64,000 bases of DNA from an uncultured Atopobium sp. (GTDB lineage: Bacteria > Actinomycetota > Coriobacteriia > Coriobacteriales > Atopobiaceae), in the NCBI GenBank assembly GCA_947090525.1, contig CAMUON010000001.1:388473-452472 (forward strand). Reading direction: 5' to 3'. The notes under the pieces were generated by a model. It saw only the letters and a list, made by a program, of their open reading frames with translations. It had not been told where the DNA came from and searched no databases. Of this stretch, positions 46,656 through 63,674 are shown one piece after another. Each line of letters opens with the position of its first letter. Position 1 is the stretch's first letter. The position numbers and the translations under genes were made by a program.

Positions 46656-49600
46656 CTAGAGACGCTTTTTTCTGCGGTAGCTGCGTTCTACAAAGCGCTT
46701 ACGTTTGATATAGCCAAAGGCTATGCTCATAATGCCTGCTCCCAAAGCCGATGCGCATCCCACAGAAAGGGGAGAGTGGAGGAAGAGATCTGCTGTTTGC
46801 GCAAGGCGAGATGATCCTTCGTGTTGAGAGTGCTCCTCCTCGCTTGGGTTGTTCGTATGCTCATCGTTAGTTGCGCGCCCGTGTGCATCGTCTTCATCAG
46901 TGTCTGCTGTATCGTCTCCGCGCTGCTTATCGATGACATTTTCGTCGTCACGTCCTTCTTTGATGCCTTTTTTATTTGCATCCTTTTTGTCGTCTTCTAC
47001 CTCGGTATCCTCATCGTCTTGTGAAGTCTTGTCATTACGCGCGTGTTTTGACTTCTTTGACGTTCCTTTGTTCTTCTTGCGCGCATGTTTCGTGTCCGCG
47101 CTTGCTTGTTCATTGTCTTCGAGCTCGTCGCTCTCGTCGTTGTTGTCGAGCGCTCCCTTCTTTTCGCCTGTTTCGCTCTTCTGATCAAGCTCATTGGACG
47201 AATTGTGCCTACGTGTTCTATGCGCATTTCGCTTTGCTTCAAGGTCTTCGAGTGCTTTTGCGAGTGCGCGTGAAAGGGAAGCATCAAAGCCAGCGTTTGT
47301 GTTTTGTTCCTGCGGTTTTAGCTGGCTGGGATCGTTTTTGCCTTCGTTTGGTTTTTGCGCGGGCGTGTTTTCTGCTCCTGAGGGCGTTTGAGTTTGATCG
47401 TTTCCTTTCGGTTTAGATGGATCCGTTGTTGTATCCGGCTTTTTCTGCGAAGGATCCGCTTGAGAACTGTGCGTGTTGTCGCCTTTAGTAGATGCTGGAT
47501 CTGCAGGGTATGCATGCTTTTTGTCGTCGGTTTCAAAGAACATTTTGAGCGCTTTTTGCACGCGCGCAAGAAATACGCTTGCGTCCTGCCAAATCGTGGG
47601 CTTATCGTTCGTATGGGGTTTGGGCTCTTCCTTGGATTCGGGTTGAGTCTCTATCGTGCCCGATGGGTTGGTGTTTGGCGTGGTATGAGGATCCTTTTTG
47701 TCGGAGGAACCAGGTGTTGCACCAGGGATTACGCTGGGATCAGTCTTACCACCCGTTCCAGGTTTCTCACCCGGTGTCGAATCTGGCTTTGTACCAGGGG
47801 CTACGCTGGGATCAGCCTTGCCGCCTGTACCAGGAGTCGTGCCGGTACCTGTACCGGGAGTTGTGCCGGTACCTGTACCTGGAACTGTGCCGGTACCCGG
47901 GGTTGTCTCGGGTTTTTTACCAGGATTTGAACCCGGATCAGTCTTGCCACCGGCTCCAGGTGTTGCACCAGGGGTTACGCTGGGATCAGTCTTCCCGCCG
48001 GCTCCAGGTTTCTCACCTGGGGTTGTGCTTGAGTCGGGAGTTGTACCAGTACCCGTACTTGCGCCCGTGCCAGGAGTTGTGCCTGTACCAGCGCCAGTAC
48101 CTGGAGTTGTGCCAGGGGTCGTACCAGTGCCGGGAGTTGTGCCCGTGCCGGGAGTTGTGCCCGTGCTCGTACCTGCGCCGCTTCCGCCATCATTTGGCTT
48201 TGTTTGCTGCGTATCCACGAAGTCCCGATGTACTTTCAATGCGTCTACAGCTTCCGTTACCCCTTCGCGTGTGATTTCAAATTTGTACGAAACGGCCTTT
48301 GCTTTTTTATGTTCAATATTGATTTCCGTGAGCTTATATTTACCAAAAACCAGAGCTCCTTTAGCATCGTCTGCGCGCGTTTGCGTATCGCGGCCGCTAA
48401 ACCAGCATCCGAAGGGCTTTTGCGATGCATCCATCCGTGGAATTTGTGCCTGATTGAGCAGATAGTCAAGTGTATTCGTCGATTCAGAGTGCGCAACTAT
48501 GTTCGAAGAAGTATCGATAATCCCAGCTTCTGAGGACATGACCACATGACTTTCGTGCGTTTTTTCGTCTTGCAAGACAAACGTCTTCTTGCTAAGCACG
48601 CCTTTGCCTTCAAGGTCCAAAAGCCGCGCGCGGAAATCGCCGCGTATCACTTCGCAGCGCGGAATTGCGTGCTCCGGGAGCTCATAGCTAATATCGTCTT
48701 TGTTAACCACTACACTATAGTTCCATTTCTTGAGCGCATCGCTCATTTTGTAGCCCGTACCTACTGAGTGAAGTGAAAGCGTGTATTTCCCCTTGGGAAG
48801 CAGGTGCTTAGAAGTTTGTGCGCGCCCTTCAGCATTTGTTTTGATTGTCGTGATGAGTTCGCCTTTTTTATAGCTTTTGCCGCTTTTGCCGCCTATGGTA
48901 ATTGCATCTTCTCCAGCATTTTTTATCTCAAATTCAGCGCCTGCAAGACTTGCCGCGCCAAGTGGGTTTTCATTGCCCTCTTTATCGAGGATGCGTGCGC
49001 AAATTTGTGCTCCTTTGAATTGTTCCGGCTTTCGCTGCGTGCCGGCGTTTGGATTGACCACAACCAGCGCATTTGAACCCGTGATGGTGAAGTCTTGTGC
49101 ATAGAGAACGCGGGCTTTTTCGTCCTTCGCATAGCTGAGTTCTAGCGTATAGGAACCTATAGGCAACGTTCTTCCTGTTGTTTGCGCAGCTAAACCGTCT
49201 TTTGCATCACTTGCGCCCACGACATGTGGATGCACCACCAAGCATGCCTCATCCTTTTTGTGCGTTCTACCTTCGACGACGACGTCTTGGGTATTCTTAG
49301 ACCGAATGGTGTAGTTGACATCGTCCATCTGCGCTTCTTGGGGAATGCCCAGCTCATTGAGGTCATGTTTGTTGCTCACGACACGGATATCTCCGCTTAT
49401 GACAGAAAGTGCAATAGTGTTCTTGGGTATATCGTTGCCGCCCGAACTTGCGGGTTTTTCGCTTAGTGTATGCGTGCTTTCAAAGTTTTGGCTGCTATAG
49501 CCTTTGGAGCTTTGTTTATGGCTGATTTTTATGCTGCCAAGGGGGAGTGCAGCTGCCCCGTCCAAACTTGGAAAAAGAAGCTTACTATCATTCGTATCTT

Positions 49601-51596
49601 TGAGATGTGCAGCGTCCAGGCTTACATGCCCGTTCGCGTCAGTTATGAGCATGTAGCTGCGGTCGGCTTTTGCTTCTTTATTCTCTGCTCCCTTGGTATC
49701 TGTGAAAAAGTCGAGCTGAATTTCGTTATGCTCAAGCGTCGCACTGCCTTGCGCCTTGTTTGTTTTGAGGCCTGAGTCCATGTATTCTATGATGTCTTTT
49801 GTGCGATAGTACTGCGGCGTTTTGATGAGGGAAAGCTCTGCAGTCTTGTCCTTTTCGATGCTGACTTCATATATGGTTTTGTCTGCCACGTAGCCTTTTG
49901 AGCGTTTGAGCTCTTTTACGAAGTAGTGCCCGCGCTTGAGGCTTACCGCATCGATGCTTCCGTCTGGCCGACTCGTGAGTTCACAGACTTTGTAGGTGCA
50001 TTCTTTATCGGTATATACGCCGTGCGTGCTTTCTGCAAAGCTGTAATTGGGATTTTTGTCGCTTAGGGCCGGTACTTTTGAGACCATTTTTGCTGCGAGC
50101 GCGCCTTTTTCAAGATTGATGGCGTCATATTTGATGGTGCCCGTGGTATTTGAAAGTACCTCAAAGCCTGATTTGTCGCAGGAACCTACCCACACTTTAT
50201 ATATATTTTTATCTTGTTTAGCGCTATCCGCTTCCTTCACTTCTGGGAATTGTTTGAGGTAGTAATACCTATTTCCATGGAGATATTCACTTTGGCAGCG
50301 ACCATTTTTATCTGTTGTAATATCTTTTGCCGCGACATAGTTCTTGTTGTATGCAGATGCTTGTTTGGTGCATTCCTCATCCGAATAGATTCGATACGTG
50401 GTATTTGCATGCATGGTGCCCAAAGCTTCCGTATTCAGAATGAGGTATCCGCGCGGACGCAGGTAGTAGTAGGGGCCCATGCGATGTCTATTGAGTATGC
50501 CGCGGTAGGCGATGATATCTTTTGGTAATTCTTTACTGATGATTTGTCTGAATACGCTTGTGTCGCAACGTGTATCGCCTTCGTTACATATTCCGATAAT
50601 ATTTCTACCCATCCAGTCGTGTACGATACCCTTCATGCCGAGGCGGTTGGCATTATCTGTTCCGTAGTAATCCTTTGACGCGTGTTCTGCGATCATCAGA
50701 TAGGTGCACACATAGTAGACATCATCGGTAAGGGGCTCGCCATTCCAGTCGGTTTTTGGCCACATACTCTTGTCGAAACCAGGGCCACCGAATCCGTAAT
50801 ACATGATTTTGAATGGAATATCGTAATCGGGATAGCGGCGGTCCATATCGTTGTCTCGGTCGCAAAGACACACCGCAAGACCAGGTTCTGGATCTTCCGA
50901 GGCAGTCCAGCCATAATATGCAACATCATCACCAACATAGTATTTAGGGGTAGAAGCGCGCGGGCGATCAGAGGAAAATTTATATGGTTTGCGCTCAATA
51001 CGAAGGCCCGAAAAATCGATAATGCTTGATGGGCTATAGCGGACATACTGGTTGGCACCGACAAAATCCTCAGCGAGTGTGTAGAGCGGCGAGAGAACGT
51101 AAGATGATGTCATGGCAGCAATTACAACAAGAGCGAGGCTACACCTGACTGCGCGTGAATACACGAGGTCAAAGAGCGTATGTGGCGTATTCAATGCGTA
51201 CTTTTTTGAAGGTCTCCAGATGCGTGCCTGCATTTTTTTGTGCACGAGCGTGCGCATGCTTTGGAGTATGGGTTTTTTTATGTGATTGTGTATCTTTTTT
51301 TGTAGCTGTTTATGTACCTGCTTGCTTATCTGTTGCATGCGTTTTCTCATGCGCCGCGCACAGGTATGAATGCCTATGCGTAAGGAGCTCATCGGAAAGT
51401 GCTGGCGATACCGTCTCATGGCTAACTCCTTGTGTGTACTCGACGATCCTGGGATAGCGCGGGCAAGCGTGTGAGCGCTGGCGACGTATGGGCTGTTGTG
51501 TGTCCGCCCATGCAATTCCACGTGTTTGCGCGTGGTTAGGATCCATTTGTCTCCTAAAATTCGTTTCCCAAAATCTGATGGAAAGGTGGCACACAT
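46656..51596 (-). CDS. Very large cell-surface adhesin (up to 1646 aa; probable true start near 51257): N-terminal globular domain, multiple Cna-B/SpaA-type beta-sandwich repeats, P/T/G-rich stalk, K/E/D-rich region, C-terminal sorting-signal-like LAQTA plus hydrophobic segment plus KRKR
   Basis: Signal-peptide-like segment at MRTLVHKK...ALVVIAAMT. Repeated GxYxxxEL...GY...Y.V motifs. Stalk encoded by TPGTG repeats. Hydrophobic anchor with basic tail at the C-terminus. Confidence 0.6.
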   Translation of the reverse strand: MCATFPSDFGKRILGDKWILTTRKHVELHGRTHNSPYVASAHTLARAIPGSSSTHKELAMRRYRQHFPMSSLRIGIHTCARRMRKRMQQISKQVHKQLQKKIHNHIKKPILQSMRTLVHKKMQARIWRPSKKYALNTPHTLFDLVYSRAVRCSLALVVIAAMTSSYVLSPLYTLAEDFVGANQYVRYSPSSIIDFSGLRIERKPYKFSSDRPRASTPKYYVGDDVAYYGWTASEDPEPGLAVCLCDRDNDMDRRYPDYDIPFKIMYYGFGGPGFDKSMWPKTDWNGEPLTDDVYYVCTYLMIAEHASKDYYGTDNANRLGMKGIVHDWMGRNIIGICNEGDTRCDTSVFRQIISKELPKDIIAYRGILNRHRMGPYYYLRPRGYLILNTEALGTMHANTTYRIYSDEECTKQASAYNKNYVAAKDITTDKNGRCQSEYLHGNRYYYLKQFPEVKEADSAKQDKNIYKVWVGSCDKSGFEVLSNTTGTIKYDAINLEKGALAAKMVSKVPALSDKNPNYSFAESTHGVYTDKECTYKVCELTSRPDGSIDAVSLKRGHYFVKELKRSKGYVADKTIYEVSIEKDKTAELSLIKTPQYYRTKDIIEYMDSGLKTNKAQGSATLEHNEIQLDFFTDTKGAENKEAKADRSYMLITDANGHVSLDAAHLKDTNDSKLLFPSLDGAAALPLGSIKISHKQSSKGYSSQNFESTHTLSEKPASSGGNDIPKNTIALSVISGDIRVVSNKHDLNELGIPQEAQMDDVNYTIRSKNTQDVVVEGRTHKKDEACLVVHPHVVGASDAKDGLAAQTTGRTLPIGSYTLELSYAKDEKARVLYAQDFTITGSNALVVVNPNAGTQRKPEQFKGAQICARILDKEGNENPLGAASLAGAEFEIKNAGEDAITIGGKSGKSYKKGELITTIKTNAEGRAQTSKHLLPKGKYTLSLHSVGTGYKMSDALKKWNYSVVVNKDDISYELPEHAIPRCEVIRGDFRARLLDLEGKGVLSKKTFVLQDEKTHESHVVMSSEAGIIDTSSNIVAHSESTNTLDYLLNQAQIPRMDASQKPFGCWFSGRDTQTRADDAKGALVFGKYKLTEINIEHKKAKAVSYKFEITREGVTEAVDALKVHRDFVDTQQTKPNDGGSGAGTSTGTTPGTGTTPGTGTTPGTTPGTGAGTGTTPGTGASTGTGTTPDSSTTPGEKPGAGGKTDPSVTPGATPGAGGKTDPGSNPGKKPETTPGTGTVPGTGTGTTPGTGTGTTPGTGGKADPSVAPGTKPDSTPGEKPGTGGKTDPSVIPGATPGSSDKKDPHTTPNTNPSGTIETQPESKEEPKPHTNDKPTIWQDASVFLARVQKALKMFFETDDKKHAYPADPASTKGDNTHSSQADPSQKKPDTTTDPSKPKGNDQTQTPSGAENTPAQKPNEGKNDPSQLKPQEQNTNAGFDASLSRALAKALEDLEAKRNAHRTRRHNSSNELDQKSETGEKKGALDNNDESDELEDNEQASADTKHARKKNKGTSKKSKHARNDKTSQDDEDTEVEDDKKDANKKGIKEGRDDENVIDKQRGDDTADTDEDDAHGRATNDEHTNNPSEEEHSQHEGSSRLAQTADLFLHSPLSVGCASALGAGIMSIAFGYIKRKRFVERSYRRKKRL

Positions 51597-52207
51597 TATG
51601 GAGGGTGAAGCGTATTGGGAAACTGAGAATTTTGGAAAAATTAGGCATTTCGGCGAAAAAAATTAGGGCTTTGAGCTGCGCTTGCATAAAACTTGCAGTA
51701 AGCTAGCGGATAATGCCGGTTTGGCAAGTTTGTGCGCGATTCAGATTTTGATATGGCATGTGCGAGCGGGTGCTTGAGGCGTTTTGCGCGCGAAGTTTGT
51801 GGTGCTTTTGTGCGCGGAGTCGCTACGGCTTTGTGCGGATGCATATACCACGGCCTTGTAGCCTGTACTCTTTTAAGACGATAACTTTTTGCACACATAC
51901 GCTTCGCGTCGTACTGCAGCTTTCCGCACTACAGTTTCGCGACGCAGGTTCGTACTGCAGCTTTCCGCATTAGGGGAGAGATATTCATGTATATGTGGTT
52001 TTATGCGTGCCATTACGTGAAACGTTGGTGGAGCTTTTTTTATGTTTACAAGCGGTTTATACTTTTGAACTGCGATTTTCTAGGAGCTGTGCGCTAGTTG
52101 TGAGTAATTCAAAATTTTTTGAGATTTGGTCTTGCACTTTCACCCAAAATTAGTCATGATTATCAAGCACGTTATTTGCGCGGCCACACGCGGCCTTGCG
52201 CGCCTAT

Positions 52208-52284
52208 GGTGGGTGTAGCTCAGTTGGGAGAGCGCCGGACCGTGGCTCCGGAGGTCGAGGGTTCGAGACCCTCTACCCACCCCA
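52208..52284 (+). tRNA. tRNA-His (anticodon GTG) with encoded G-1 and C73
   Basis: G-1:C73 extra pair (His identity element). Anticodon stem CCGGA/TCCGG, loop CCGTGGC, encoded CCA. Position 33 reads C (unusual); verify with tRNAscan-SE. Confidence 0.75.
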
Positions 52285-52314
52285 TGTTGCTTGTCAATGC
52301 GTGCGTTTTGGAAT

Positions 52315-52390
52315 GGGTCGTTAGCTCAGTTGGTAGAGCAGGGGACTCTTAATCCCAAGGTCGAGGGTTCGACCCCCTCACGACCCACCA
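52315..52390 (+). tRNA. tRNA-Lys (anticodon CTT)
   Basis: First 27 nt match the textbook bacterial tRNA-Lys (GGGTCGTTAGCTCAGTTGGTAGAGCAG). Loop CTCTTAA, encoded CCA. Confidence 0.85.
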
Positions 52391-52435
52391 TTCTTTTTTG
52401 ATTCCAGTCACCATATGTACTACGCGTGAGAAAGC

Positions 52436-52680
52436 GCGCGTGCGCGCCTGCTTAAGCTGGGTATGCATTGGCGCCAGTCTTTTTACGTACAAACCTTTTC
52501 TCCACACGGGGGCTTTTTGCTGCGCATGCGGGCTGGAAACCCCTAGTAGACTGTCCACGCGAACAATTCTTTACGACGTGCCGCACGAGCGAGGAAGCTG
52601 TTTTGTGGGAACGCGTTGCGGGTTTCCGCGTTCGCCGCAAAACCGTTAGCGAGCGCAGATGATTATGGAGCTTGTGGCCT
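52436..52680 (+). repeat. Island-flanking direct repeat, left copy (about 75% identical to 63228-63430)
   Basis: GCGCGCCTGCTTAAGCTGG...GGGGCTTTTTGCTGCGC...GCGCAGATGATT shared with the right copy. Confidence 0.55.
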
Positions 52681-52681
52681 T

Positions 52682-52878
52682 CCGCGCGAGCGTAGAAAAA
52701 AACGGGTTTTTATCTACCGTTTTGACCCGATTTTGACCAAAATCGAGCTCCTCCCGCACCGCCCAAAAAATCCCCGACGCGTTTACCTGCGTATATAAGA
52801 ATTTTAACTAATAAAAATAGTTGAATTATTGATATTTTGGTAGATAACAACCTGATTTTTTCTACGCTCTCCCGCGCG
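52682..52878 (+). mobile_element. 190-bp TIR element B, copy 1 (termini CCGCGCGAGCGTAGAAAAAAACGGG / GATTTTTTCTACGCTCTCCCGCGCGG)
   Basis: Terminal inverted repeats. Its AT-rich interior is the reverse complement of the interior of the copy at 63434-63626. Confidence 0.5.
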
Positions 52879-53112
52879 GTATATACCCCGATATATATGG
52901 AAACGCTGTGGTGTGGTCAGAGCTACATCACAGCGATTCCTATCCCTATACAACAGAATAACTCATTTACACGCTTTTGGTTCTATAGCCCTAATATCCC
53001 AATTTTTCCTTAAAAATCGCCGTTGGCCGAAATGCCGATGAGTTTCAAAATAACAGAAGTATACTTCCCTTATACTATTTGAGCTTTTGTAAAGAGATAT
53101 GGTATTCGAGAT

Positions 53113-53252
53113 AGACAAAAGCCCCTCAGATGAGGGGCTTGCATATTGCAAGATTGGTACCTACGTACCGCCATACAAAACGTAATGGCTTTTAAGGTTA
53201 AACCTTTATTTTGACTTGCAGTGTCACTTTGACTGGAATCAAAGCAAGGCCA
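53113..53252 (-). ncRNA. Predicted tracrRNA (antisense, upstream of cas9)
   Basis: The plus strand at 53207-53250 carries a degenerate repeat-like sequence (TTTTGACTTGCAGTGTCACTTTGACTGG-AATCAAAGC versus repeat TTTTGGAGCAGTGTCATTTTGACTGGTAATCAAAC), so a minus-strand transcript carries an anti-repeat. Minus-strand terminator GCAAGCCCCTCATCTGAGGGGC plus TTTTGT at 53113-53140. Confidence 0.55.
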
Positions 53253-53281
53253 TTGTAATACATTTAGGAGCGTGTAACAAG

Positions 53282-56200
53282 ATGAATTTACGTAAAGCCT
53301 CTGATTATAGTGTAGGACTTGACCTCGGGACTGGTTCGGTAGGTTGGTGTGCTGTAGATAACAATGGCTATCTTTATTCATTTAAGCGCAAGCCTACTTG
53401 GGGAAGTAGGGTTTATGATAGCGCAGCACCCGCAGCCGATGCACGTCAGTTTCGCAGCCTGCGCAGACGTTATGACAGAAGACGTCAGAGGATAAATCTA
53501 TTACAAGGGCTGTTTTCAGAGGAAATGAAACATGTAGACCCTGATTTTTTCATCCGCTTGAATCAATCGCAATTACTCAAAGAAGACAGAGATGAGACTT
53601 GTAAGGAATATGCATGTCCACTTTTTAAAACTGTTGCGGATGAAAAAGAGTATTACAAAACGTATCCAACGATTTACCATCTTCGCGCAGCTCTTATGCA
53701 TGCAAACCAGAAAATGGATTTGCGGTTAGTTTATCTAGCACTGCATAACATTGTTAAATATCGCGGTAACTTTTTGTATCAGGAATACGCTCATCTATCT
53801 GCAAAAGACGCAGGCTTATCCGAGCAATCTAGCAACTTTCTTACGAGTATTGAACATTTTGAAGACGATCGTTGTATAAGTTTTACTTATGATACCGCAG
53901 AAATTATTCATTTCCTGAATAATTTAAAGCCAACACGAGCACAAAATCGTGATGAATGGCAAAAGCTGTTTGTGTGTGAGGCAAGCGACGACATTCCTGG
54001 AAAACAGGCAAAAGACATCACTAAATGCATTGCTCAAGCAATATTCGGATATCAAGCTGATTTCTCAGCGCTATTTGGAACTGAAAAAGAAAAATCAAAG
54101 TTTACGTTATCTCAAGATGAAAAGGTTATGGCGTTCGAAGAGCTATGCCCCACAGAATTTCTGCCCTTATTTAACGCGCTTAAAGCAATGTATTCTGCAT
54201 ATCTTCTAACAACCATCATAAGAGGCTCCAATGGCGGCACAATTTCAAACGCAAAAATTGCTCAATATAATGCATATCACGATGACCTCGCAAAGCTTAA
54301 GAAGCTTGTGAAACGCATACTAGGCAAGGATGAGTACGATACATTCTTTCAGGGTGTATATTACAAGAATACCAAGTTGTACAACAAGCAAAAAGCAGAA
54401 GGATACACCGCTTACAACTTGGGCAAACTAAGCTACGATGAGTTCAAAAAAGACCTTAAAAAGTTGATTGAAAAACTCGAAAAAAGCGGGGTTTTGAGCG
54501 CTGAAGATGATGCGTGGGTACAGCAGATTCCTACTCGTGTGGACAACGAAGAATTTCTAAGACGGCTGAGAACGAGTGATAACGGTAGTATTCCTTATCA
54601 GTTACATCTTGAGGAAATGGACGCGATCATTAAAAACCAAGGCAAATACTATCCGTTCTTACTCAAAGAAAAAGACAAAATTGAGTCGCTTATAACGTTT
54701 AGGATTCCTTACTATGTAGGACCTCTTACTCTAAAAAATGCTGCACGCGATGCTTATGGTAAGACTCGCTTTGCATGGATACAAAAGAAAGAGGGCGCCG
54801 AAAAAACACGGATACTACCATGGAACTGGGAGGATGTTGTCGATAAACATGCAACGGCCGAAGCGTTTATTAGAAGAATGACTGGTAAATGTACTTATTT
54901 GTATGCTGAAGATGTACTTCCAAAGTGTTCACTTTTATATCAGAAGTTTTGTGCATATAACGAGCTAAATGGTATGCGCTGGACAACAGATAATGACCAG
55001 TATAATCGCTTTAGTGCCGACTACAGAGAGGGTGTTTATAACGATCTTTTTGTTAGGAGTAACGGAAAAGTTACGTACAAAAAGATAGAACACTGGCTCG
55101 AACAGCAAGGTGAATTGCACCCTCATGTAAAAGGCGGTCAGGGAGAAAACGGGCTTGAAAGCAGGCTTTCATCGTACCATTTCTTTAAAGATTTGCTCGA
55201 GTTTGATGTTCTTACAGCTCGGCAAGAAAAAGAAATCGAAAAGATTATTTTATGGAGCACCATCTTTGAAGATCGAACCATTTTGAAAGAAAAGCTCAAG
55301 GCTCAGTCGTTTCAAACTGAATTTACATCTGCGTTTAGTCGTGTTTTAACCGCAGAACAGATACAAAAAATTTGTAAAAAACGATTTACCGGCTGGGGCA
55401 AGCTTTCTAAAAAGCTGCTTACTGGTTTGTCTGTAGATATAGATGGTGAACGTCTTAACATTCTCGATTTGCTGATACACGGTGATGTAACAGATGGTCG
55501 TGCTGGCCGCGCGCTTATTTTTCAAGAGATTGTGACCATGAAGCAATTTAAGGAAGCAATATCAAAAACAAACGAAGAAGCGCTTTCGAAATGCATAATT
55601 GATATAGACGACCTACCTTGCTCACCAGCAGATAAACGCACGGTCAACCAGGCACTTCGCGTGGTAGATGAAATTGCGTCTATTGCTAGTTGCGCGCCCT
55701 CACGAATTTTTATTGAGGTCACACGAGAGGAGGATACAAAAAATAAAGGCAAACGTACAGACAAGCGCACTTCAAAGCTCGAAATGGGGCTCAAAAAGCT
55801 TCGTGACAGCGAGGACACCAAGGCCATTCTCGCAGAACTTTCTGCTCATAAAAATCTAGATGAAAAACTCACGCTATACTTTGCACAAAATGGAAAATCA
55901 CTGTATTCGGGCACGCCACTAGATATTAACGAGCTTTCGCATTATCAGGTAGATCATATAATTCCACAATCATATATAAAAGACGACAGCATAGACAACA
56001 AGGCACTTGTACTTGCAAGCGAAAACCAGCGTAAGAGTGACAGCTTACTCCTAGATGATAGTATTCGCAGAAAGATGAGCAATACTTGGACCGCGCTATT
56101 TAAGGCGGGTCTTATGAGCGAAAAGAAATTCAATAATTTGAAGTGCTCAAGCATTACAGATCGTCGGCTAAAATCGTTCATCAATCGGCAGCTGGTAGAA

Positions 56201-57484
56201 ACGAGCCAAATTTGTAAGTATGCCATGCAACTATTTAAAGCAAAGTACCCACATTGCGAGGTTATACCAGTTAAGGCGGGCATATCTTCTGGTATTCGCC
56301 ATACATGGAACATTGCTAAGTGCCGTGAGGCAAATGATTACCACCATGCGCACGATGCATATTTAGCGTGTGAGGTAGGGCGTTTTATACAGCTTCATTA
56401 TCCAAAAATTTATAGCAACCCAACGGCATACAACAAAGAAGTGCGTGGTCTTATACAGTCAAATATTGTACACAGCGCTAGTGAGGGGAATGGCAGATAT
56501 AGACTGCCGGGTGACTCAGGGTGGCTTACCTATAGTTTTGCGCATAAAAAGACCTCTGCGTGGGATTGTGATGCTGAGCGAGATCGTCTGCTAAAGTATG
56601 TTGACTACCCTGACTGCCATATCACGCGCATGGCATATATAGAAACGGGTGCATTTTGGGATCAGACACTTTATTCGCCTCATGCTGGGAAAAAAGATCT
56701 TATACCTCTCAAGAAACATCTTGACACTCATAAGTACGGCGGGTATTCAAGTAAAAAATACGCACTATTTTTCGTATATTCTTTGCAGAAGAAAAAAGGC
56801 AACAAGGAATATTGTTTATCCGGCTTACCCATAGCTACACTTGCGGAAGCCACTCATAACACAACAGGTAAAATCGATATGGATCGACTCATTCAACTTG
56901 AAGAACAATCTATTCAACTTGAAAAGCAACTTATCACAACTCATCATGCGCCTATCCAGATAGTACAGCCAATCGTGTATAAAAATCAGCTTATCGAATT
57001 TAAAGGGAGACGAGAAATAATTACAGGTAAAAAGGAACGAAGAAATGCTCGGGAACTTGCATTTAAGCAGCAGCATATGCGTTTGCTCAAGATGTGGGAT
57101 GGTGATCTTAAAGGGAAGTATCGTGAGAAAAAAGAAGGCGTTGACGAAGATTGTCTACTCAACGAGATGTTCGATTTGATATTAGAAAAGACGTCTCACT
57201 ATGCACCTATGTTGCATAAAAGACTACTAGACATCGTAAATGCAAACGCGAATGACTATTCACGTATCGAAATGATCTTTGCTGCAATTAAAGATCAAAA
57301 TGATAAAAAAGCTGTCTTGTTTAACATCATTAGCAATGCAAATGCAAATAAAAACATGATTGACTTGACGGCTATTGGGGGAAGTGCAAATTTCGGAGCA
57401 ATTAAAGATCAGCCTAAACAATTTGACATTATTGAACAATCAGTAACAGGTATGTTTGAGAAAAGGATTCACATTGGGATTTAG
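53282..57484 (+). CDS. cas9: Type II-A CRISPR-associated endonuclease Cas9 (about 1400 aa)
   Basis: RuvC-I (YSVGLDLGTGSVGWCAV), Arg-rich bridge helix (RRRYDRRRQRI), HNH (YQVDHIIPQS...N...S). Local GC about 40% versus the higher-GC flanks. Confidence 0.9.
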   Translation: MNLRKASDYSVGLDLGTGSVGWCAVDNNGYLYSFKRKPTWGSRVYDSAAPAADARQFRSLRRRYDRRRQRINLLQGLFSEEMKHVDPDFFIRLNQSQLLKEDRDETCKEYACPLFKTVADEKEYYKTYPTIYHLRAALMHANQKMDLRLVYLALHNIVKYRGNFLYQEYAHLSAKDAGLSEQSSNFLTSIEHFEDDRCISFTYDTAEIIHFLNNLKPTRAQNRDEWQKLFVCEASDDIPGKQAKDITKCIAQAIFGYQADFSALFGTEKEKSKFTLSQDEKVMAFEELCPTEFLPLFNALKAMYSAYLLTTIIRGSNGGTISNAKIAQYNAYHDDLAKLKKLVKRILGKDEYDTFFQGVYYKNTKLYNKQKAEGYTAYNLGKLSYDEFKKDLKKLIEKLEKSGVLSAEDDAWVQQIPTRVDNEEFLRRLRTSDNGSIPYQLHLEEMDAIIKNQGKYYPFLLKEKDKIESLITFRIPYYVGPLTLKNAARDAYGKTRFAWIQKKEGAEKTRILPWNWEDVVDKHATAEAFIRRMTGKCTYLYAEDVLPKCSLLYQKFCAYNELNGMRWTTDNDQYNRFSADYREGVYNDLFVRSNGKVTYKKIEHWLEQQGELHPHVKGGQGENGLESRLSSYHFFKDLLEFDVLTARQEKEIEKIILWSTIFEDRTILKEKLKAQSFQTEFTSAFSRVLTAEQIQKICKKRFTGWGKLSKKLLTGLSVDIDGERLNILDLLIHGDVTDGRAGRALIFQEIVTMKQFKEAISKTNEEALSKCIIDIDDLPCSPADKRTVNQALRVVDEIASIASCAPSRIFIEVTREEDTKNKGKRTDKRTSKLEMGLKKLRDSEDTKAILAELSAHKNLDEKLTLYFAQNGKSLYSGTPLDINELSHYQVDHIIPQSYIKDDSIDNKALVLASENQRKSDSLLLDDSIRRKMSNTWTALFKAGLMSEKKFNNLKCSSITDRRLKSFINRQLVETSQICKYAMQLFKAKYPHCEVIPVKAGISSGIRHTWNIAKCREANDYHHAHDAYLACEVGRFIQLHYPKIYSNPTAYNKEVRGLIQSNIVHSASEGNGRYRLPGDSGWLTYSFAHKKTSAWDCDAERDRLLKYVDYPDCHITRMAYIETGAFWDQTLYSPHAGKKDLIPLKKHLDTHKYGGYSSKKYALFFVYSLQKKKGNKEYCLSGLPIATLAEATHNTTGKIDMDRLIQLEEQSIQLEKQLITTHHAPIQIVQPIVYKNQLIEFKGRREIITGKKERRNARELAFKQQHMRLLKMWDGDLKGKYREKKEGVDEDCLLNEMFDLILEKTSHYAPMLHKRLLDIVNANANDYSRIEMIFAAIKDQNDKKAVLFNIISNANANKNMIDLTAIGGSANFGAIKDQPKQFDIIEQSVTGMFEKRIHIGI

Positions 57485-58355
57485 AACTGTCATCCTCAAT
57501 ACTCCCTGTCGATGCACCTATCAAGGTGGGTACCTGGTTGTTCGTCAAGAGGACAAGCAGCCGCGGGTTCACCTTGGTGAGATTTCATCTATTATGCTTG
57601 GTACCGAGCAGATATTCCTAAGTGCGTATTTGCTTGCTGAGCTCGCAAAACTTAAAATTCCTGTAATTGTTACTGACGAAAAGCATAACCCCGTGGGTGA
57701 ATACTTACCCCTCTATGGCGCGCATAACTGCTCAAAATGTATGCTTGAGCAGCTCGCATGGGGCGAAGTGATAAAAAAACAAGTATGGCGCAGCATTGTT
57801 CAACACAAAATACTGCAACAGAGTTCCATGCTCGCTTATCTTGGCTACTCGGATGCAGCGAAAACATTGGAAGAATATGCCTCAAAAACAAAATCCGGCG
57901 ATACTACCAAAAGAGAAGCCGTGGCCGCTCGACTGTATTTCCTGACACTGTTTGGATCTGAGTTTACAAGAGATCAAAACACTCCTTTGAATGCCTGTTT
58001 GAACTATGGATATGCCATTCTATTGGCGCATGCAAACAGAGAAATTGTGTCTCACGGATATCTCACGCAACTCGGTATTTTTCACCGCAGCGAATTTAAT
58101 CACTTTAATTTGGCGTGTGACCTTATAGAGCCGTTCCGGCCGCTTATCGATAAAATTGTATGTGAACATTTTGCACAGAATTTCGATAATGATATACGAC
58201 ATGCGCTTTGTGGTTTCGTGGATTATCAGCTGTTCTATATGAACGGTAGATACAAAGCGGCGTCTGTAATTAAGTCGTACATATCAGACTGTTTAGCTGC
58301 ACTCAACAAAGAGAAACTTCCTGCCGAAATTAAGCCATTTGGGTTCATACTATGA
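57456..58355 (+). CDS. cas1: CRISPR-associated integrase Cas1 (type II); possible TTG start at about 57474 giving MGFRTV
   Basis: Collinear with streptococcal type II-A Cas1 (GFRTVILN...YLPLYG...LNYGYAILLA...IEPFRPLIDK). Confidence 0.85.
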   Translation: MRKGFTLGFRTVILNTPCRCTYQGGYLVVRQEDKQPRVHLGEISSIMLGTEQIFLSAYLLAELAKLKIPVIVTDEKHNPVGEYLPLYGAHNCSKCMLEQLAWGEVIKKQVWRSIVQHKILQQSSMLAYLGYSDAAKTLEEYASKTKSGDTTKREAVAARLYFLTLFGSEFTRDQNTPLNACLNYGYAILLAHANREIVSHGYLTQLGIFHRSEFNHFNLACDLIEPFRPLIDKIVCEHFAQNFDNDIRHALCGFVDYQLFYMNGRYKAASVIKSYISDCLAALNKEKLPAEIKPFGFIL

Positions 58356-58684
58356 ATACGACAAGGATACGGTTTATGAGGTTGATAGTATTTTTTGATC
58401 TACCCATGGAGACCCATGCTCAGAAAAAGTCTTACACGGATTTTAGGAGATTTTTATTGCATGATGGCTATCTCATGATGCAAAAGTCTGTTTATGTCAA
58501 GCTCATTATCAATGAGCAAAATGCTTCGGCAGTCATTGCGCGCTTAAAACTTCATAAGCCGCAGTATGGCTTGGTTCAGTTACTGAAGGTGACCGAAAAG
58601 CAATACGCCAACATAGAATATGTTTGCGGTAACTCTAGCTCACAAAATATGGTTGAAACTCTGGAAAGCTTACTTATATTATGA
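58352..58684 (+). CDS. cas2: CRISPR-associated endoribonuclease Cas2
   Basis: IRFMRLIVFFDLPMET...KSYTDFRRFLLHDGYLMMQKSVY matches the canonical Cas2 N-terminus. Overlaps the cas1 stop. Confidence 0.85.
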   Translation: MNTTRIRFMRLIVFFDLPMETHAQKKSYTDFRRFLLHDGYLMMQKSVYVKLIINEQNASAVIARLKLHKPQYGLVQLLKVTEKQYANIEYVCGNSSSQNMVETLESLLIL

Positions 58685-59364
58685 ACATACGTTTTAGTGG
58701 CTTATCGAAAATAATTGACCTGAAGAAAGGGCATCCATTTTTTGTCTGTGTTGAGAACCGCCATCTTTATGCCAGATTTATATATTCACTTTTATCTGCA
58801 GCAGGAGAAGAGTCGCCTGAGCCATATACCTTGTGGAACGATAATGATGAAAAGCTCCAGCCCAAAAATCACTTTCTGTGGGTGACCGATCCCTTTCATC
58901 TGCCTTTCGAAAACAAGCTTCTAATGGGTGAAGTACTCAACGGAATTGCAAGCAGCATTGATGATGGCTTTGAAACCCAGGAAGAGTTTAAAGATATAAC
59001 GAGACAGTTATACAAGCTTTTTCTGTTGGAAACGTATCAGTATAAAGGTAATTATGCTATTTCACCTGATGTTGACATTCACAAGATTCTCAAGCTCATG
59101 AGTTTTTCTCCAGACACGTCCCGGGACAATAATTTTCTAGATGAGCTAATCAACTTTATACATATTGCCAGAGACGCATCTCTGATTCAGCCAATCGTTT
59201 TTGTGGGAATTTGTTCTTTTTTGACTGTTAAAGAGATAGAATTATTGCTAGAAGAGATAAAAAATTCTTGTTTATGCGTGCTGTTTTTTGAAAATCGAAT
59301 TCCCTGTGATGCTGTTTATGAAGAAGAGCATATACTACTTGACCTGGATTTTCTTGAGAGTTAA
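58681..59364 (+). CDS. csn2: Csn2 (type II-A signature protein)
   Basis: 227 aa immediately after cas2 and before the array. Architecture like the short-form Csn2. Confidence 0.75.
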   Translation: MNIRFSGLSKIIDLKKGHPFFVCVENRHLYARFIYSLLSAAGEESPEPYTLWNDNDEKLQPKNHFLWVTDPFHLPFENKLLMGEVLNGIASSIDDGFETQEEFKDITRQLYKLFLLETYQYKGNYAISPDVDIHKILKLMSFSPDTSRDNNFLDELINFIHIARDASLIQPIVFVGICSFLTVKEIELLLEEIKNSCLCVLFFENRIPCDAVYEEEHILLDLDFLES

Positions 59365-59419
59365 GTAGGAAAAACCAGCTAAGATGGCCGTTCCCTCGCA
59401 GTGGGAAATTTGTTTCAAG

Positions 59420-60639
59420 GTTTTGGAGCAGTGTCATTTTGACTGGTAATCAAACTCTTGGGCTTACTATTACATTTAAGGCTGTGTTTTGGAGCAGTGT
59501 CATTTTGACTGGTAATCAAACGTGCTGCTTCTTTTTAAGCGAACTTATACCGTTTTGGAGCAGTGTCATTTTGACTGGTAATCAAACTATTGATTCTGAG
59601 GGTATGATTCATGTTGCGTTTTGGAGCAGTGTCATTTTGACTGGTAATCAAACTTAGTGTAAACTACGCCAGTGGTGTCGTTAGTTTTGGAGCAGTGTCA
59701 TTTTGACTGGTAATCAAACCAACGCTTATAGCGTAGTATGTAATGTGTGTTTTGGAGCAGTGTCATTTTGACTGGTAATCAAACAAGAAGCAGCACAACG
59801 ACACGAACGCGCTCGTTTTGGAGCAGTGTCATTTTGACTGGTAATCAAACATATTGCTACGAGGTATTATACGGTCGCGAGTTTTGGAGCAGTGTCATTT
59901 TGACTGGTAATCAAACCATCAACGCTATCTTTGGAGTGAACGTTACGTTTTGGAGCAGTGTCATTTTGACTGGTAATCAAACTGCGTTCGACGTGATCGA
60001 TTCGCTCGGGTTGTTTTGGAGCAGTGTCATTTTGACTGGTAATCAAACTATAAAGTGCATTATCAAGCCATTCACCTTGTTTTGGAGCAGTGTCATTTTG
60101 ACTGGTAATCAAACAGAATGTACCACGACGAGGAGAACGCGCAGTTTTGGAGCAGTGTCATTTTGACTGGTAATCAAACGCGAGGCCGTAGACCTTGAGG
60201 AAGCGACGGTTTTGGAGCAGTGTCATTTTGACTGGTAATCAAACCAGCGGACCTGATTTTATTCGGCTTATAGTGTTTTGGAGCAGTGTCATTTTGACTG
60301 GTAATCAAACCCGTCGGGTTGGCATACGATACCGAGTTCAGTTTTGGAGCAGTGTCATTTTGACTGGTAATCAAACGCGAGGCCGTAGACCTTGAGGAAG
60401 CGACGGTTTTGGAGCAGTGTCATTTTGACTGGTAATCAAACCAGCGGACCTGATTTTATTCGGCTTATAGTGTTTTGGAGCAGTGTCATTTTGACTGGTA
60501 ATCAAACCCGTCGGGTTGGCATACGATACCGAGTTCAGTTTTGGAGCAGTGTCATTTTGACTGGTAATCAAACTCTTGGTGCAAAATGTCTTTGAATGTG
60601 GTTGTTTTGGAGCAGTGTCATTTTGACTGGGGAATATCC
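59420..60639 (+). CRISPR. CRISPR array: 19 copies of the 36-bp repeat GTTTTGGAGCAGTGTCATTTTGACTGGTAATCAAAC, 18 spacers (29-31 bp), terminal repeat degenerate/truncated; leader 59365-59419
   Basis: Repeat starts at 59420, 59486, 59552, 59618, 59684, 59749, 59815, 59881, 59947, 60013, 60079, 60144, 60209, 60275, 60341, 60406, 60472, 60538 and 60604. Spacers 12-14 are exactly duplicated as 15-17. Confidence 0.95.
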
Positions 60640-60709
60640 ATTGACCTTATCATATATAACGAAGGTTATCATAATATATAACAACAACCTGAAACCAAAA
60701 GAGCCGGAT

Positions 60710-60796
60710 ATGGATCAGGTTGTTGTAATGTTTTTTATCAGCTTCTTATCAAATTTTTTAGCGGTAGTGTTAGCTGATGCAATCCGCAAGAAATAA
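60710..60796 (+). CDS. Small hydrophobic peptide (28 aa, MDQVVVMFFISFLSNFLAVVLADAIRKK); paralogue of 61527-61622
   Basis: Single predicted TM helix with C-terminal RKK. Same overall architecture as peptide B. Confidence 0.3.
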   Translation: MDQVVVMFFISFLSNFLAVVLADAIRKK

Positions 60797-60977
60797 AGAC
60801 AAGCTGATAGTATAGGTGAGGCGTGTTGACAGCGCGCCTTATTCTCATCCTACCAGATTAGGGGATGAGAATTGTAGAGCTCATAGGAATTTTGTTGGAC
60901 ACTCTCACGAGCTATAGAGCTTACCATTGGCAGGCTTGTTATGTATGGTTTTACCACAAAAGGAAGGAGCATGAGAC

Positions 60978-61166
60978 ATGGCGACAGAAGCAAGACTAAG
61001 AGCAAATAATAACTACGTTAAACACAACGTAAAGAAAGTATCAATAGCGTTTTATCCAAAAGACAAAGAAATGTATGCATGGGTCGCGCAACACCCTAGC
61101 AAGGCTGGTTATATTCGCGAGCTCATAGTAAAAGACATGCAGGCGAAAAGAGACAGCCAACATTAA
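60978..61166 (+). CDS. Ribbon-helix-helix (CopG/Arc/MetJ-like) small protein, paralogue 1 (62 aa)
   Basis: AAGGAAGGAG RBS. KKVSIAFYPKDKEMYAWV...YIRELIVKDM fits the RHH strand-helix-helix pattern. Paralogous to 61622-61819. Confidence 0.5.
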   Translation: MATEARLRANNNYVKHNVKKVSIAFYPKDKEMYAWVAQHPSKAGYIRELIVKDMQAKRDSQH

Positions 61167-61211
61167 AAAAGCTTGTATAAGCGTACAGCATGCATAACAA
61201 GTTTATAGAGA

Positions 61212-61246
61212 GGGCGGACGGTCATAATACGTTCGCCCTTTTTGTT
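61212..61246 (+). terminator. Rho-independent terminator (GGGCGGAC...GTTCGCCC plus T-run) after RHH paralogue 1
   Basis: GC stem followed by TTTTTGTTT. Confidence 0.55.
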
Positions 61247-61328
61247 TGTGTGTGCATTAACGTGCATACACTGGTACGATATAGAGTAGGTAGTATAATA
61301 ATAAGCAGCAAGAAAGGAGGTGGTTAAA

Positions 61329-61466
61329 TTGGACACCGAAGCACTCTTGCTGAACCTTTTATGCTCGGTTCTTGGTGGTTTGATTATTGAGCTACTGAAA
61401 TTGGGTATAAAAGAAGCTCCAAAGCTTAAGCTAGGGAAAGCAAAGAAAGCAAAGGAGCGAAAGTAA
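61329..61466 (+). CDS. Small peptide A (45 aa, TTG start): hydrophobic helix plus Lys-rich tail (…LGKAKKAKERK)
   Basis: Strong AAAGGAGG RBS 8 nt upstream of the TTG. Confidence 0.3.
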   Translation: MDTEALLLNLLCSVLGGLIIELLKLGIKEAPKLKLGKAKKAKERK

Positions 61467-61526
61467 CAAAGATGCTGGGGAGTTCGCTCCTCAGCGTCTT
61501 ACGTACAGTATAAAGGGGTGATTGCC

Positions 61527-61622
61527 ATGGAGCAATACATTTACATGATTATCACAAGCGCTTTGGGGTACCTTGTAGCGCACTATATCGTGAGGGTAAT
61601 AGAGGCTCTAAGAAAGAAGTAA
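61527..61622 (+). CDS. Small hydrophobic peptide B (31 aa, MEQYIYMIITSALGYLVAHYIVRVIEALRKK), translationally coupled (TAATG) to RHH paralogue 2
   Basis: AAAGGGG RBS. TM helix plus RKK tail. Its stop overlaps the next ATG. Confidence 0.35.
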   Translation: MEQYIYMIITSALGYLVAHYIVRVIEALRKK

Positions 61623-61819
61623 TGAAGATGGTTTCAGATGCACAGAAGCGCGCAAACGCTAACTATAAAAGGAGAAGCACTAAAACAAAGCAGATAGTGT
61701 TCTTTCCCGATGATATGGACTTGTTCGAGTGGGTAGGCACGCAGCCGAAACAAAATGCGTATCTAAAAGACCTCATCAGAAAGGATATGCAAGCTCACAA
61801 ACAAAATGAGCAGCAATGA
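61622..61819 (+). CDS. Ribbon-helix-helix small protein, paralogue 2 (65 aa)
   Basis: KQIVFFPDDMDLFEWV...YLKDLIRKDM. Paralogous to 60978-61166. Confidence 0.5.
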   Translation: MKMVSDAQKRANANYKRRSTKTKQIVFFPDDMDLFEWVGTQPKQNAYLKDLIRKDMQAHKQNEQQ

Positions 61820-61865
61820 GCAGCAATGAGCAAGAGTGAGCAGCTTTGAGCAGCAATGAGCAGCG
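61805..61865 (+). repeat. 10-bp tandem repeat (ATGAGCAGCA x6, with variants) at the 3' end of RHH paralogue 2
   Basis: Seen directly. The period is not a multiple of 3. Confidence 0.7.
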
Positions 61866-62037
61866 CTTATAGCGTAGTATGGAATTGTGAAGCCGTAGGG
61901 GAAACCTTGCGGCTTTTTAATAGGCGGGGGGTATCCTTTCTGAATACGCGCACCGCTCGACGCCATTCAAGAAAAGATGCTTGAGTGGTATTGCCTCGAG
62001 GATGCAAAAGAAGACGAACAGGACGACTTAATACGCG

Positions 62038-62904
62038 TTGACGCACGATCTTGGAGACGATGAATTCATGCGGCTCCTGGCGGAAGATGTAGGTTGCGAA
62101 GTCTATCACCATGCCAACCGTACAACAAAGCATAATGCCGCGAAAAACAGTGTCCGTTATGCGCGCGTGCCCTTTGGTAACTCATGTGCATTTTGCTTGA
62201 TGTTAAGTACCCGCGGCTTCGTGTACCTCTCAAGGACGTCAGCAGGTGAAGACAAGGGGCACTATCACGCACATTGCCATTGCAAAATCGTGGCAAGTAA
62301 GAAAGGTACCACGATCGACGGTTACGATCCTGAGGGGCTCGACTACCGCATACATCAAGTTGCTCAAGAGCTCGGCATTTCCGATTTTAATTGGCAGGAT
62401 TATATGCGCAATCCTGCTATGCAAGCTATGCTGCAAAAAGAAATACGTCTGCGTGACAAAGACTGGTTGCTTACAGGCATGCCGTCTGAGGTAGATTATG
62501 AAAATGAACTTGCTGAGAAGAACGCGCATGCCCATGAAATCGAGCAAGCTAAACGTTTGGCGCAGCACGGCATTAAGTGCACCTTTCAGGTTGATTATGA
62601 GGTTGATGAGAAGACAAAGGGCACAGCAAGACAGAAGACCATTGGCAAGACAGACCTCGCTAATGGTATTGAGCTTAAGAGCTTGGGACACACGACAAAC
62701 CTAAGAAAGAGGATAGAGAAAGAACTCAGGAACTCAAGAGATAAAAAGGGCTTTAAATCGTGTCATTTCGATGCATATGATACGGACTTTGATGAAATAG
62801 AAATATCAAAGGCTTTGAAGGACAAAATGAAACAAGTGCACATTAGGCGAAGTTCTTTTATAGACTCTGATGGGCAATATCACGTCGTTCAGGTAAATAA
62901 ATAA
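62038..62904 (+). CDS. Hypothetical protein with N-terminal Cys/His cluster (C-x2-C ... H-x-H-C-H-C), K/E-rich C-terminal half; AT-rich, probably of mobile-element origin
   Basis: GNSCAFC...GHYHAHCHC suggests a Zn-binding or HUH-like site. No confident family assignment. Confidence 0.4.
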   Translation: MTHDLGDDEFMRLLAEDVGCEVYHHANRTTKHNAAKNSVRYARVPFGNSCAFCLMLSTRGFVYLSRTSAGEDKGHYHAHCHCKIVASKKGTTIDGYDPEGLDYRIHQVAQELGISDFNWQDYMRNPAMQAMLQKEIRLRDKDWLLTGMPSEVDYENELAEKNAHAHEIEQAKRLAQHGIKCTFQVDYEVDEKTKGTARQKTIGKTDLANGIELKSLGHTTNLRKRIEKELRNSRDKKGFKSCHFDAYDTDFDEIEISKALKDKMKQVHIRRSSFIDSDGQYHVVQVNK

Positions 62905-63037
62905 AAAAGAGACTACGACAGGGTAACCCCCGAAGCAGCCTCTCTTATTACAGCCACTATACCACATCAACATCGTTAATCAAAGAGCCTGCATAGGCTC
63001 TTTTTTTATACATCCGCACGGATAGGAAGGACACATC

Positions 63038-63244
63038 ATGGCTAAAGATGATGTACAGCAAGTACAGGACGTCGAAGCGACAGACGCGCACGCAGAAGCT
63101 GCAGAAACCGATTGGAAAGCACAGGCGCGCAAATGGGAAAAACGCGCTAAAGAGAACAGCGCGGCAGCAGATGAGCTCGCCAAGCTTAAGGAGTCGCAGA
63201 TGACAGAGCTCGAACGCATTCAAGCGCGCATGCGCGCCTGCTGA
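63038..63244 (+). CDS. Small acidic/coiled-coil hypothetical protein (68 aa)
   Basis: ORF with an upstream GGAAGGA RBS-like sequence. Its 3' end runs into the right flanking repeat. Confidence 0.3.
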   Translation: MAKDDVQQVQDVEATDAHAEAAETDWKAQARKWEKRAKENSAAADELAKLKESQMTELERIQARMRAC

Positions 63245-63430
63245 AGCTGGTGAGTGCTCCGCATCAGCCTTTTCATGTACAAATTCGTTTCCTCACGCTG
63301 GGGCTTTTTGCTGCGCGTGAACAGAAAACCATGGTAGCAGGCGCAGATGATTTACAAGCATGCTGGTAGCTCGTGCAATAGACTTGCCATCAAGAATTTC
63401 TTGAGAACTTTCTTCTGCCGAGATTTTTAG
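63228..63430 (+). repeat. Island-flanking direct repeat, right copy
   Basis: See 52436-52680. Confidence 0.55.
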
Positions 63431-63433
63431 CCC

Positions 63434-63626: not shown

Positions 63627-63674
63627 TGGGGGCAGAAAAGCCTGCCTTGTATATATTCATGTGCGCTCACTATC

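Follow-up and report, generated by a model that had tools for sequence, protein, structure and literature searches.

Does the DNA immediately upstream of cas9 in a CRISPR-Cas locus of an uncultured member of the Atopobiaceae (Coriobacteriia) encode the tracrRNA with which that Cas9 would work? The initial annotation of the 64,000-nt stretch analysed here (the window) had predicted such a gene, antisense to cas9. We examined the locus, its repeat and the corresponding region of related loci.

The type II-A locus and its anti-repeat

The window contains a complete type II-A locus, in which cas9, cas1, cas2 and csn2 adjoin an array of 36-nt repeats. The NCBIfam models for all four cas genes matched well over their cut-offs.

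52209-52281 and 52315-52387: two tRNA genes, from an Rfam scan
53266-53270, plus strand: ribosome-binding site of cas9, AGGAG
53282-57484, plus strand: cas9, 1400 aa (TIGR01865, 810.9 bits, residues 9-1391)
57456-58355, plus strand: cas1 (TIGR03639)
58352-58684, plus strand: cas2 (TIGR01573)
58681-59364, plus strand: csn2 (TIGR01866)
59420-60639, plus strand: CRISPR array of 19 repeats, 18 of them identical 36-nt copies of GTTTTGGAGCAGTGTCATTTTGACTGGTAATCAAAC and the terminal one (60604-60639) degenerate

We rejected the start listed for the cas9 open reading frame, a TTG at 53216, in favor of the ATG at 53282. From this ATG the frame encodes 1400 aa, in agreement with the length of about 1400 aa first proposed for the protein. 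The invariant columns of a ten-sequence Cas9 alignment include D14, E812, H892, N915, H1021-H1024 and D1025, which we take to be the equivalents of the SpCas9 catalytic residues.

The spacers of the array are 29-30 nt long, and transcription on the plus strand would fit both the degenerate last repeat and a csn2-proximal leader. Three repeat-spacer units (60144-60340) are exactly duplicated at 60341-60537; the segment from 60144 to 60537 is a tandem duplication within the array, not three independent acquisitions. Looking for protospacers that would inform on the PAM and on array orientation, we compared the whole array with the INPHARED phages and obtained no matches, and spacers 1-3 had no exact match in IMG/VR.

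In the region 52000-60700, the CRISPR-cas island begins about 700 nt past the two tRNA genes and has a GC content of about 41%, compared to about 50% in the rest of the window. In relatives the same cas module lies in varied neighborhoods, next to a phosphoketolase gene in locus L017 and to HisKA/RsfS genes in L009 and L018. The differing neighborhoods and the GC offset together suggest horizontal transfer of the cas module. Elsewhere in the window, the C-terminal 425 aa of Rho are 88% identical to those of Fannyhessea vaginae and 82-85% identical to those of Olsenella, on which basis we assign the host to the Atopobiaceae. Choline-binding-type repeats are present in the protein encoded at 528-2177. 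Four large open reading frames had no NCBIfam match at E <= 1e-10: 33808-35466 (plus, 553 aa), 35756-38053 (plus, 766 aa), 38211-40205 (minus, 665 aa) and 46656-51596 (minus, 1646 aa).

With the array masked, we aligned the repeat locally against both strands of the window. The plus strand at 53218-53243 corresponds to repeat positions 9-35 except for a single mismatch and a 1-nt deletion, scoring 42, compared to 23 for the runner-up outside the array on either strand. The initial annotation had drawn this repeat-like site at 53207-53250; the site itself is real, but its extent has to be revised, the anti-repeat occupying 53208-53243. In RNA form, the repeat and the anti-repeat form a predicted duplex of -44.5 kcal/mol, against a background of -15.8 +/- 3.1 kcal/mol in 6264 other 60-nt windows from both strands and about -32 kcal/mol for the best unrelated one. 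This bears out the suggestion that the minus strand encodes an anti-repeat able to pair with the repeats with bulges, which in the predicted duplex are a tracrRNA AAG facing crRNA A8 and a bulged crRNA U28. An anti-repeat elsewhere in the window had been named as evidence that would count against the prediction. Using alignment, duplex energy and a covariance model, we found no second anti-repeat in the 64 kb on either strand, so this objection falls away.

Structure and covariation of the predicted RNA

The minus strand from the cas9 start to the terminator is predicted to be organized as follows, with the 5' end of the RNA placed from the -10 box and its 3' end from the terminator.

53275-53280, minus strand: -35-like hexamer TTGTTA, ending 2 nt before the cas9 ATG
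53252-53257, minus strand: -10 hexamer TACAAT, with a predicted transcription start near 53245
53115-53245, minus strand: predicted primary tracrRNA of about 131 nt, GCUUUGAUUCCAGUCAAAGUGACACUGCAAGUCAAAAUAAAGGUUUAACCUUAAAAGCCAUUACGUUUUGUAUGGCGGUACGUAGGUACCAAUCUUGCAAUAUGCAAGCCCCUCAUCUGAGGGGCUUUUGU
53244-53250, minus strand: 5' leader and promoter-proximal sequence, outside the anti-repeat
53208-53243, minus strand: anti-repeat, 36 nt including the lower-stem strand, beginning 39 nt upstream of cas9
53243-53237, minus strand: anti-repeat segment pairing with repeat nt 29-35 (7 pairs)
53236-53218, minus strand: anti-repeat segment pairing with repeat nt 9-27, the upper stem of 19 bp including one U.G
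53217-53215, minus strand: AAG bulge
53214-53208, minus strand: UCAAAAU, pairing with repeat nt 1-7 (GUUUUGG) in a 7-bp lower stem with two G.U pairs
53194-53206, minus strand: nexus hairpin AAGGU-UUA-ACCUU, a single nucleotide separating it from the lower stem
53170-53189, minus strand: hairpin 1, GCCAUUACGUUUUGUAUGGC, 20 nt, of variable length among relatives
53156-53169, minus strand: hairpin 2, GGUAC-GUAG-GUACC, with the conserved loop context CGUAGG
53138-53152, minus strand: weak hairpin 3, CUUGCAAUAUGCAAG, whose G53138 is common to the terminator stem
53115-53140, minus strand: intrinsic terminator, a stem-loop at 53140-53119 followed by UUUUGU at 53120-53115

All of the guide-RNA modules (lower stem, bulge, upper stem, nexus and 3' hairpins) are present. 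The 3' 100 nt of the RNA have a minimum free energy of -35.4 kcal/mol (z = -5.1 versus shuffles), and AAAA separates the nexus from hairpin 1. Hairpin 3 has only 4 bp in the predicted fold and was found only in the window's sub-clade, being absent from L009, L012, L017 and every distant relative, so that comparison lends it no support.

To ask whether this architecture is maintained, we collected related loci through a protein search, contig look-ups and a metagenome scan (80 metagenomic loci), which supplied the close and intermediate relatives; searching the representative genomes of GTDB with this one Cas9 as query gave only relatives of 28-32% identity. The Cas9 homologues fall into two groups, a metagenomic clade at 82-95% identity and a Coriobacteriia group at about 43-48% that includes Slackia exigua, Eggerthella sp. 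YY7918, Olsenella and Hugonella. Our comparative set consists of 47 distinct sequences from related loci whose Cas9 proteins are 37-95% identical to that of the window. In loci for which both the cas9 start and the array were available, the best repeat-like sequence outside the array lies on the plus strand about 100 nt upstream of cas9, the exceptions being extra or degenerate repeats beside arrays. In one Olsenella sp. locus (L024), the best repeat-like match outside the main array, with a score of 62, is on the other strand (approximately 4351-4420), some 650 nt ahead of cas9; this is probably a second, inverted array or an orphan repeat set. All members share one order of elements on the minus strand: -10 box, anti-repeat, an invariant AGUCAAAAUA, nexus, hairpin 1, hairpin 2 and terminator. 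Among the relatives we counted 15 nexus variants, all of which preserve the stem (GGC:GCC, GGU:ACC, GAC:GUC, GAU:AUC).

For the 41 loci with a known repeat, we then linked the candidate RNA to the repeat of the same locus and tallied the pairs. In the duplex and hairpins 1 and 2, 96.8% of cells hold standard pairs, compared to 31-43% when the columns are slid by 1-3 positions, and 19 of the 34 pairs have changed on both sides. None of 500 shuffles equaled the observed percentage paired, the pairs or cells changed on both sides, or the covariation score. The upper stem between repeat and anti-repeat is 95% paired, with both-side changes in 12 of its 19 pairs; the lower stem never varies and is therefore uninformative. 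Consistent with this, an alignment-free comparison gave -40.2 kcal/mol for anti-repeats with their cognate repeats against -33.3 kcal/mol for non-cognate combinations (permutation p ~2e-4), as expected if the two sequences evolve together. Wobble cells also identify the partners: G.U outnumbers A.C by 119 to 21, an excess indicating that the RNAs that pair are the plus-strand repeat and the minus-strand anti-repeat. Within the scaffold, hairpin 2 carries compensatory changes in all five pairs (97.5-97.9% of cells paired), and the outer pairs of hairpin 1 covary. At repeat position 20, opposite anti-repeat column 56, 16 of the 41 relatives have a non-standard pair, C.A in the sequences read, where the window has U-A; this mismatch may be tolerated or functional.

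RNAalifold applied to a plain MAFFT alignment recovered hairpins 1 and 2 only, along with a spurious 4-bp helix within the anti-repeat; it missed the nexus and terminator because MAFFT had mis-registered both. Realignment used a structure given by hand and a covariance model, which we built from 41 relatives, leaving out the window and its close clade. In the window this model matches 53248-53111 at 83.3 bits (E ~6e-21), spanning model positions 1-128 of 128, and every other match there is an antisense CRISPR repeat at 16-25 bits. When 56 matches were realigned to the model, in an alignment that leans towards the structure because it was fitted to it, 97.3% of cells were paired and all 20 modelled pairs, which make up the nexus, hairpin 1, hairpin 2 and the terminator, showed compensatory changes, including 3 of 3 in the nexus and 9 of 9 in the terminator.

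The model also matches at 36-52 bits upstream of cas9 in nine more loci (L068, L073, L076, L081, L082, L084, L087, L094 and L104). These loci are low in GC (25-37%), their Cas9 proteins are 33-35% identical to that of the window, and their repeats are of the GTTTTAGA... type. Their matches indicate that the RNA scaffold family extends beyond the Coriobacteriia.

The Coriobacteriia relatives (L022-L092) carry a further conserved 3' element, UUUGACUYGC, about 60-75 nt after AGUCAAAAUA (for example on the minus strand of L064 at 1620-1635). It is complementary to GCRAGUCAAA, the lower-stem and bulge strand of the tracrRNA, with 84% of cells paired compared to 13-43% when slid; the helix lacks covariation because its 5' strand is invariant. 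This pairing could be a self-pairing state of the free tracrRNA. Most of the unpaired cells in this comparison come from the window's clade, in which the element does not follow hairpin 2; the window has AAUCUUGCAAUAUGCAAG at that place. We rejected the long-range helix for the window RNA, given the lack of covariation and the absence of the element. Without UUUGACUYGC, the window RNA looks like a diverged sub-type of the Coriobacteriia-type family.

Promoter, terminator and alternative readings of the site

On the minus strand, a sigma-70-like site, TTGTTA-17-TACAAT, runs from 53280 to 53252; the initial annotation did not include it. The consensus match alone is at the level of chance, with 1 site found in the 900-nt region compared to 1.5 expected in shuffles. 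In relatives, each of the 39 distinct segments taken from upstream has a TAnnnT hexamer between -44 and -40 relative to AGUCAAAAUA. An extended -10 (TGn) accompanies it in 30 of the 39, and the window's clade lacks the TGn.

This promoter overlaps the translation start of cas9, whose ribosome-binding site lies within the promoter spacer. The arrangement is not peculiar to the window, as in nearly all loci about 60-70 nt separate the start of the anchor motif from that of cas9 and the spacing is conserved family-wide. We therefore considered whether the repeat-like sequence acts mainly or additionally on the plus strand, as a cas9 5' UTR or promoter that tunes cas9 expression. Here the tracrRNA would be cis-antisense to the cas9 mRNA, or the two promoters would be mutually exclusive, in addition to the tracrRNA role. 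Beyond the overlap itself, a scan of 52600-53500 gave no plus-strand promoter-like site for cas9, which implies that the cas9 promoter must either share sequence with the tracrRNA gene or be located past it. The best plus-strand candidate, TTGACT-17-TGGAAT, was found by eye within the repeat-like sequence, but TGGAAT does not have the A that is conserved as the second base of a -10 hexamer, and its counterpart in relatives is no better. The argument is, moreover, purely geometric, and pairing with the repeat fully explains why the anti-repeat is conserved. We consider a plus-strand role of this kind unlikely. Similarly, there is a small chance that expression of the two genes is coupled, either because the repeat-like DNA carries the cas9 promoter or because a cas9 mRNA started upstream is antisense to the tracrRNA. 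Such coupling, if true, would operate by promoter occlusion or by RNase III cleavage of a duplex between the tracrRNA and the cas9 leader, and would amount to a built-in autoregulatory circuit. Repression by tracr-L and Cas9 has been described in S. pyogenes, and this circuit would be distinct from it.

Returning to the tracrRNA itself, the initial annotation had placed a strong minus-strand terminator ending near 53113. Our scan found it, and that end was correct to within about 2 nt. Its stem has 9 pairs, 6 of them G-C, around a core of GCCCCUCAUCUGAGGGGC at 53138-53121. At the equivalent place and on the same strand, all 47 distinct relatives have a terminator hairpin (-11.5 to -25.4 kcal/mol) with a T-run behind it.

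Within the close Cas9 clade, similarity between tracrRNA genes ends directly after hairpin 2. Three unrelated hairpins occupy the same terminator position there: GCCCCUCAUCUGAGGGGC in the window (53115-53155), AAGAAGUUCUCGUCUGAGAACUUCUU in L009 (4833-4870) and AAGAAGCUCAUGUGGGCUUCUU in L017 (4833-4870). Three non-homologous terminators at one position in sub-clades argue for selection for termination at that point. Termination after hairpin 2 thus appears to be under selection, and its sequence replaceable.

These features bear on a second alternative, in which the site is an inert relic, a decayed orphan repeat without a functional transcript, and the real tracrRNA is elsewhere or missing. 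Such an origin has precedent, in that degenerate repeats are considered the likely source of the anti-repeats of tracrRNAs (Chylinski et al. 2013, PMC3737331), and the site has no Rfam match: a scan of 50000-64000 at E <= 1 returned the two tRNAs and chance matches, with none at 53100-53260. The missing match indicates that the window RNA is too diverged for any curated model in the library; it shows a limit of library coverage, an Rfam match being no defining feature of a tracrRNA. In a relic, compensatory pairing with the cognate repeat would not be expected to last, and neither would the nexus, the two hairpins that covary, the terminators of 47 of 47 relatives or the -10 boxes of 39 of 39. 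The selection implied by three non-homologous terminators and the lack of any further anti-repeat in the 64 kb on either strand point the same way, making this reading very improbable.

Finally, we rejected the idea that the minus strand encodes a small protein instead of an RNA, to which we give next to no credence: the 103-aa open reading frame at 53381-53070 is present in the mechanical list, but it runs antisense through the cas9 start, suffers 1-nt frameshifting indels among close relatives (CCAATCTTGC in the window, CCATCTCTTGC in L006), includes hairpin 1 length changes that are not multiples of 3, and has paired substitutions, as an RNA predicts, with no sign of a conserved frame or of substitution biased towards synonymous changes.

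In silico, a tracrRNA has been recognized by four features: its anti-repeat is part of the locus, it is intergenic, its pairing is validated, and it has a predicted promoter and Rho-independent terminator (Chylinski et al. 2013, PMC3737331). The window site has all four at the level of sequence. It is intergenic, lying between the tRNA genes (52209-52387) and cas9, with overlapping open reading frames that are mechanical and are disrupted by indels in relatives, and its promoter and terminator are on the anti-repeat strand. Most II-A loci characteristically have the gene ahead of cas9 and on the other strand (Chylinski et al. 2013, PMC3737331), and the placement divergent from cas9, for which S. 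pyogenes had been cited as the model, agrees with this. Taken together, the unique anti-repeat, promoter, terminator, covariation and homology to the tracrRNA of Eggerthella sp. YY7918 support the original prediction, and we conclude that the site is very probably the tracrRNA gene of this type II-A locus.

Comparison with characterized tracrRNAs

Searching the literature for tracrRNAs by Coriobacteriia genus names gave nothing directly relevant, the data being in the supplement of Gasiunas et al. 2020. That study lists Esp1, the Cas9 of Eggerthella sp. YY7918 (1380 aa), with its tracrRNA, the PAM NAAAG and cut-site data (Gasiunas et al. 2020, PMC7606464). It also includes Cgl, the Cas9 of Coriobacterium glomerans PW2 (1384 aa); both belong to its clade III, and the repeat, tracrRNA and PAM of each are given in Supplementary Data 2 (Gasiunas et al. 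2020, PMC7606464). One row of our alignment, the minus strand of L023 at 4839-4943, is the published Esp1 tracrRNA letter for letter. Its place within the alignment makes the window RNA homologous to a tracrRNA that is listed together with cleavage data.

The likeness extends to the whole locus. Relative to cas9, the tracrRNA of L023 is placed and oriented as it is in the window, and the repeats of Esp1, Cgl and the window belong to one family, GUUUUGGAGCAGUG...CUGACUGGUA..CAAAC. In all three RNAs the invariant ACUGC-R-AGUCAAAAUA leads straight into a nexus; hairpin 1, hairpin 2 in its CGUAGG loop context and a terminator are shared as well. The Cas9 proteins are similar in size, 1400 aa in the window compared to 1380-1384 aa, and that of the window is 47% identical to that of Eggerthella sp. 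YY7918. There are also differences. The window RNA is only about 50% identical to the Esp1 tracrRNA. The nexus is AAGGU-UUA-ACCUU in the window compared to CGGC...GCC in Esp1 and Cgl, hairpin 1 is longer in the window, and the window duplex has the bulged crRNA U28. A weak clade-specific hairpin takes the place of the UUUGACUYGC of relatives, and the promoter combines a -35 box with a -10 that is not of the extended form seen in most relatives. At this level of identity, and lacking the 3' element, the window RNA is one whose function with the window Cas9 we infer from its sequence.

The S. pyogenes tracrRNA, reportedly described by Deltcheva in 2011 and Jinek in 2012, with the guide-RNA modules said to come from Briner in 2014, offers a more distant comparison. 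Its gene belongs to a csn2-containing II-A locus and is found ahead of cas9, on the other strand and with a separate intergenic region, and the RNA has a 6-bp lower stem and two stem-loops after the nexus. The window gene has the same position and orientation, and its repeat likewise begins GUUUU. Both RNAs continue from the lower stem, bulge and upper stem into GCAAGU(U/C)AAAAUAAGG, a short nexus and 3' hairpins that end in a U-tract. The window RNA differs in its 7-bp lower stem with two G.U pairs and in the number of stem-loops past the nexus, which is four: two conserved ones, a weak one and the terminator. Its promoter overlaps the cas9 translation start, in contrast to the separate intergenic region of S. 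pyogenes, and there is no sign of the second upstream promoter that produces a long form in that species.

By analogy with S. pyogenes, a sigma-70-type promoter would start the minus-strand RNA near 53245 and the intrinsic terminator would end it near 53115. The 5' 36 nt of the RNA would pair with each repeat of a plus-strand pre-crRNA, and host RNase III together with Cas9 would cut the resulting duplex, again as in S. pyogenes. Mature crRNA and the tracrRNA scaffold, predicted to consist of the lower stem, bulge, nexus, hairpins 1 and 2 and the terminator hairpin, would then load Cas9 for DNA cleavage in the S. pyogenes manner. Following the scheme of Gasiunas et al., we designed an sgRNA in which a 20-nt spacer precedes GUUUUGGAGCAGUGUC-GAAA-GACACUGCAAGUCAAAAUAAAGGUUUAACCUUAAAAGCCAUUACGUUUUGUAUGGCGGUACGUAGGUACCAAUCUUGCAAUAUGCAAGCCCCUCAUCUGAGGGGCUUUU, and its predicted fold is as designed.

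The tracrRNA predicted here is an ordinary component of a II-A system and, for CRISPR biology, an expected and unsurprising one. It provides a guide-RNA scaffold for an uncharacterized lineage of 1400-aa Cas9 proteins, of which the window member is about 45-48% identical to its nearest named orthologues, the characterized Esp1 among them, so that sgRNA design and assays of PAM and activity become possible. The 47 sequences and the covariance model define a Coriobacteriia-type tracrRNA core composed of ACUGC-R-AGUCAAAAUA, the nexus and hairpin 2 with its CGUAGG context, and the comparative set shows which 3' parts of the tracrRNA are dispensable or replaceable.
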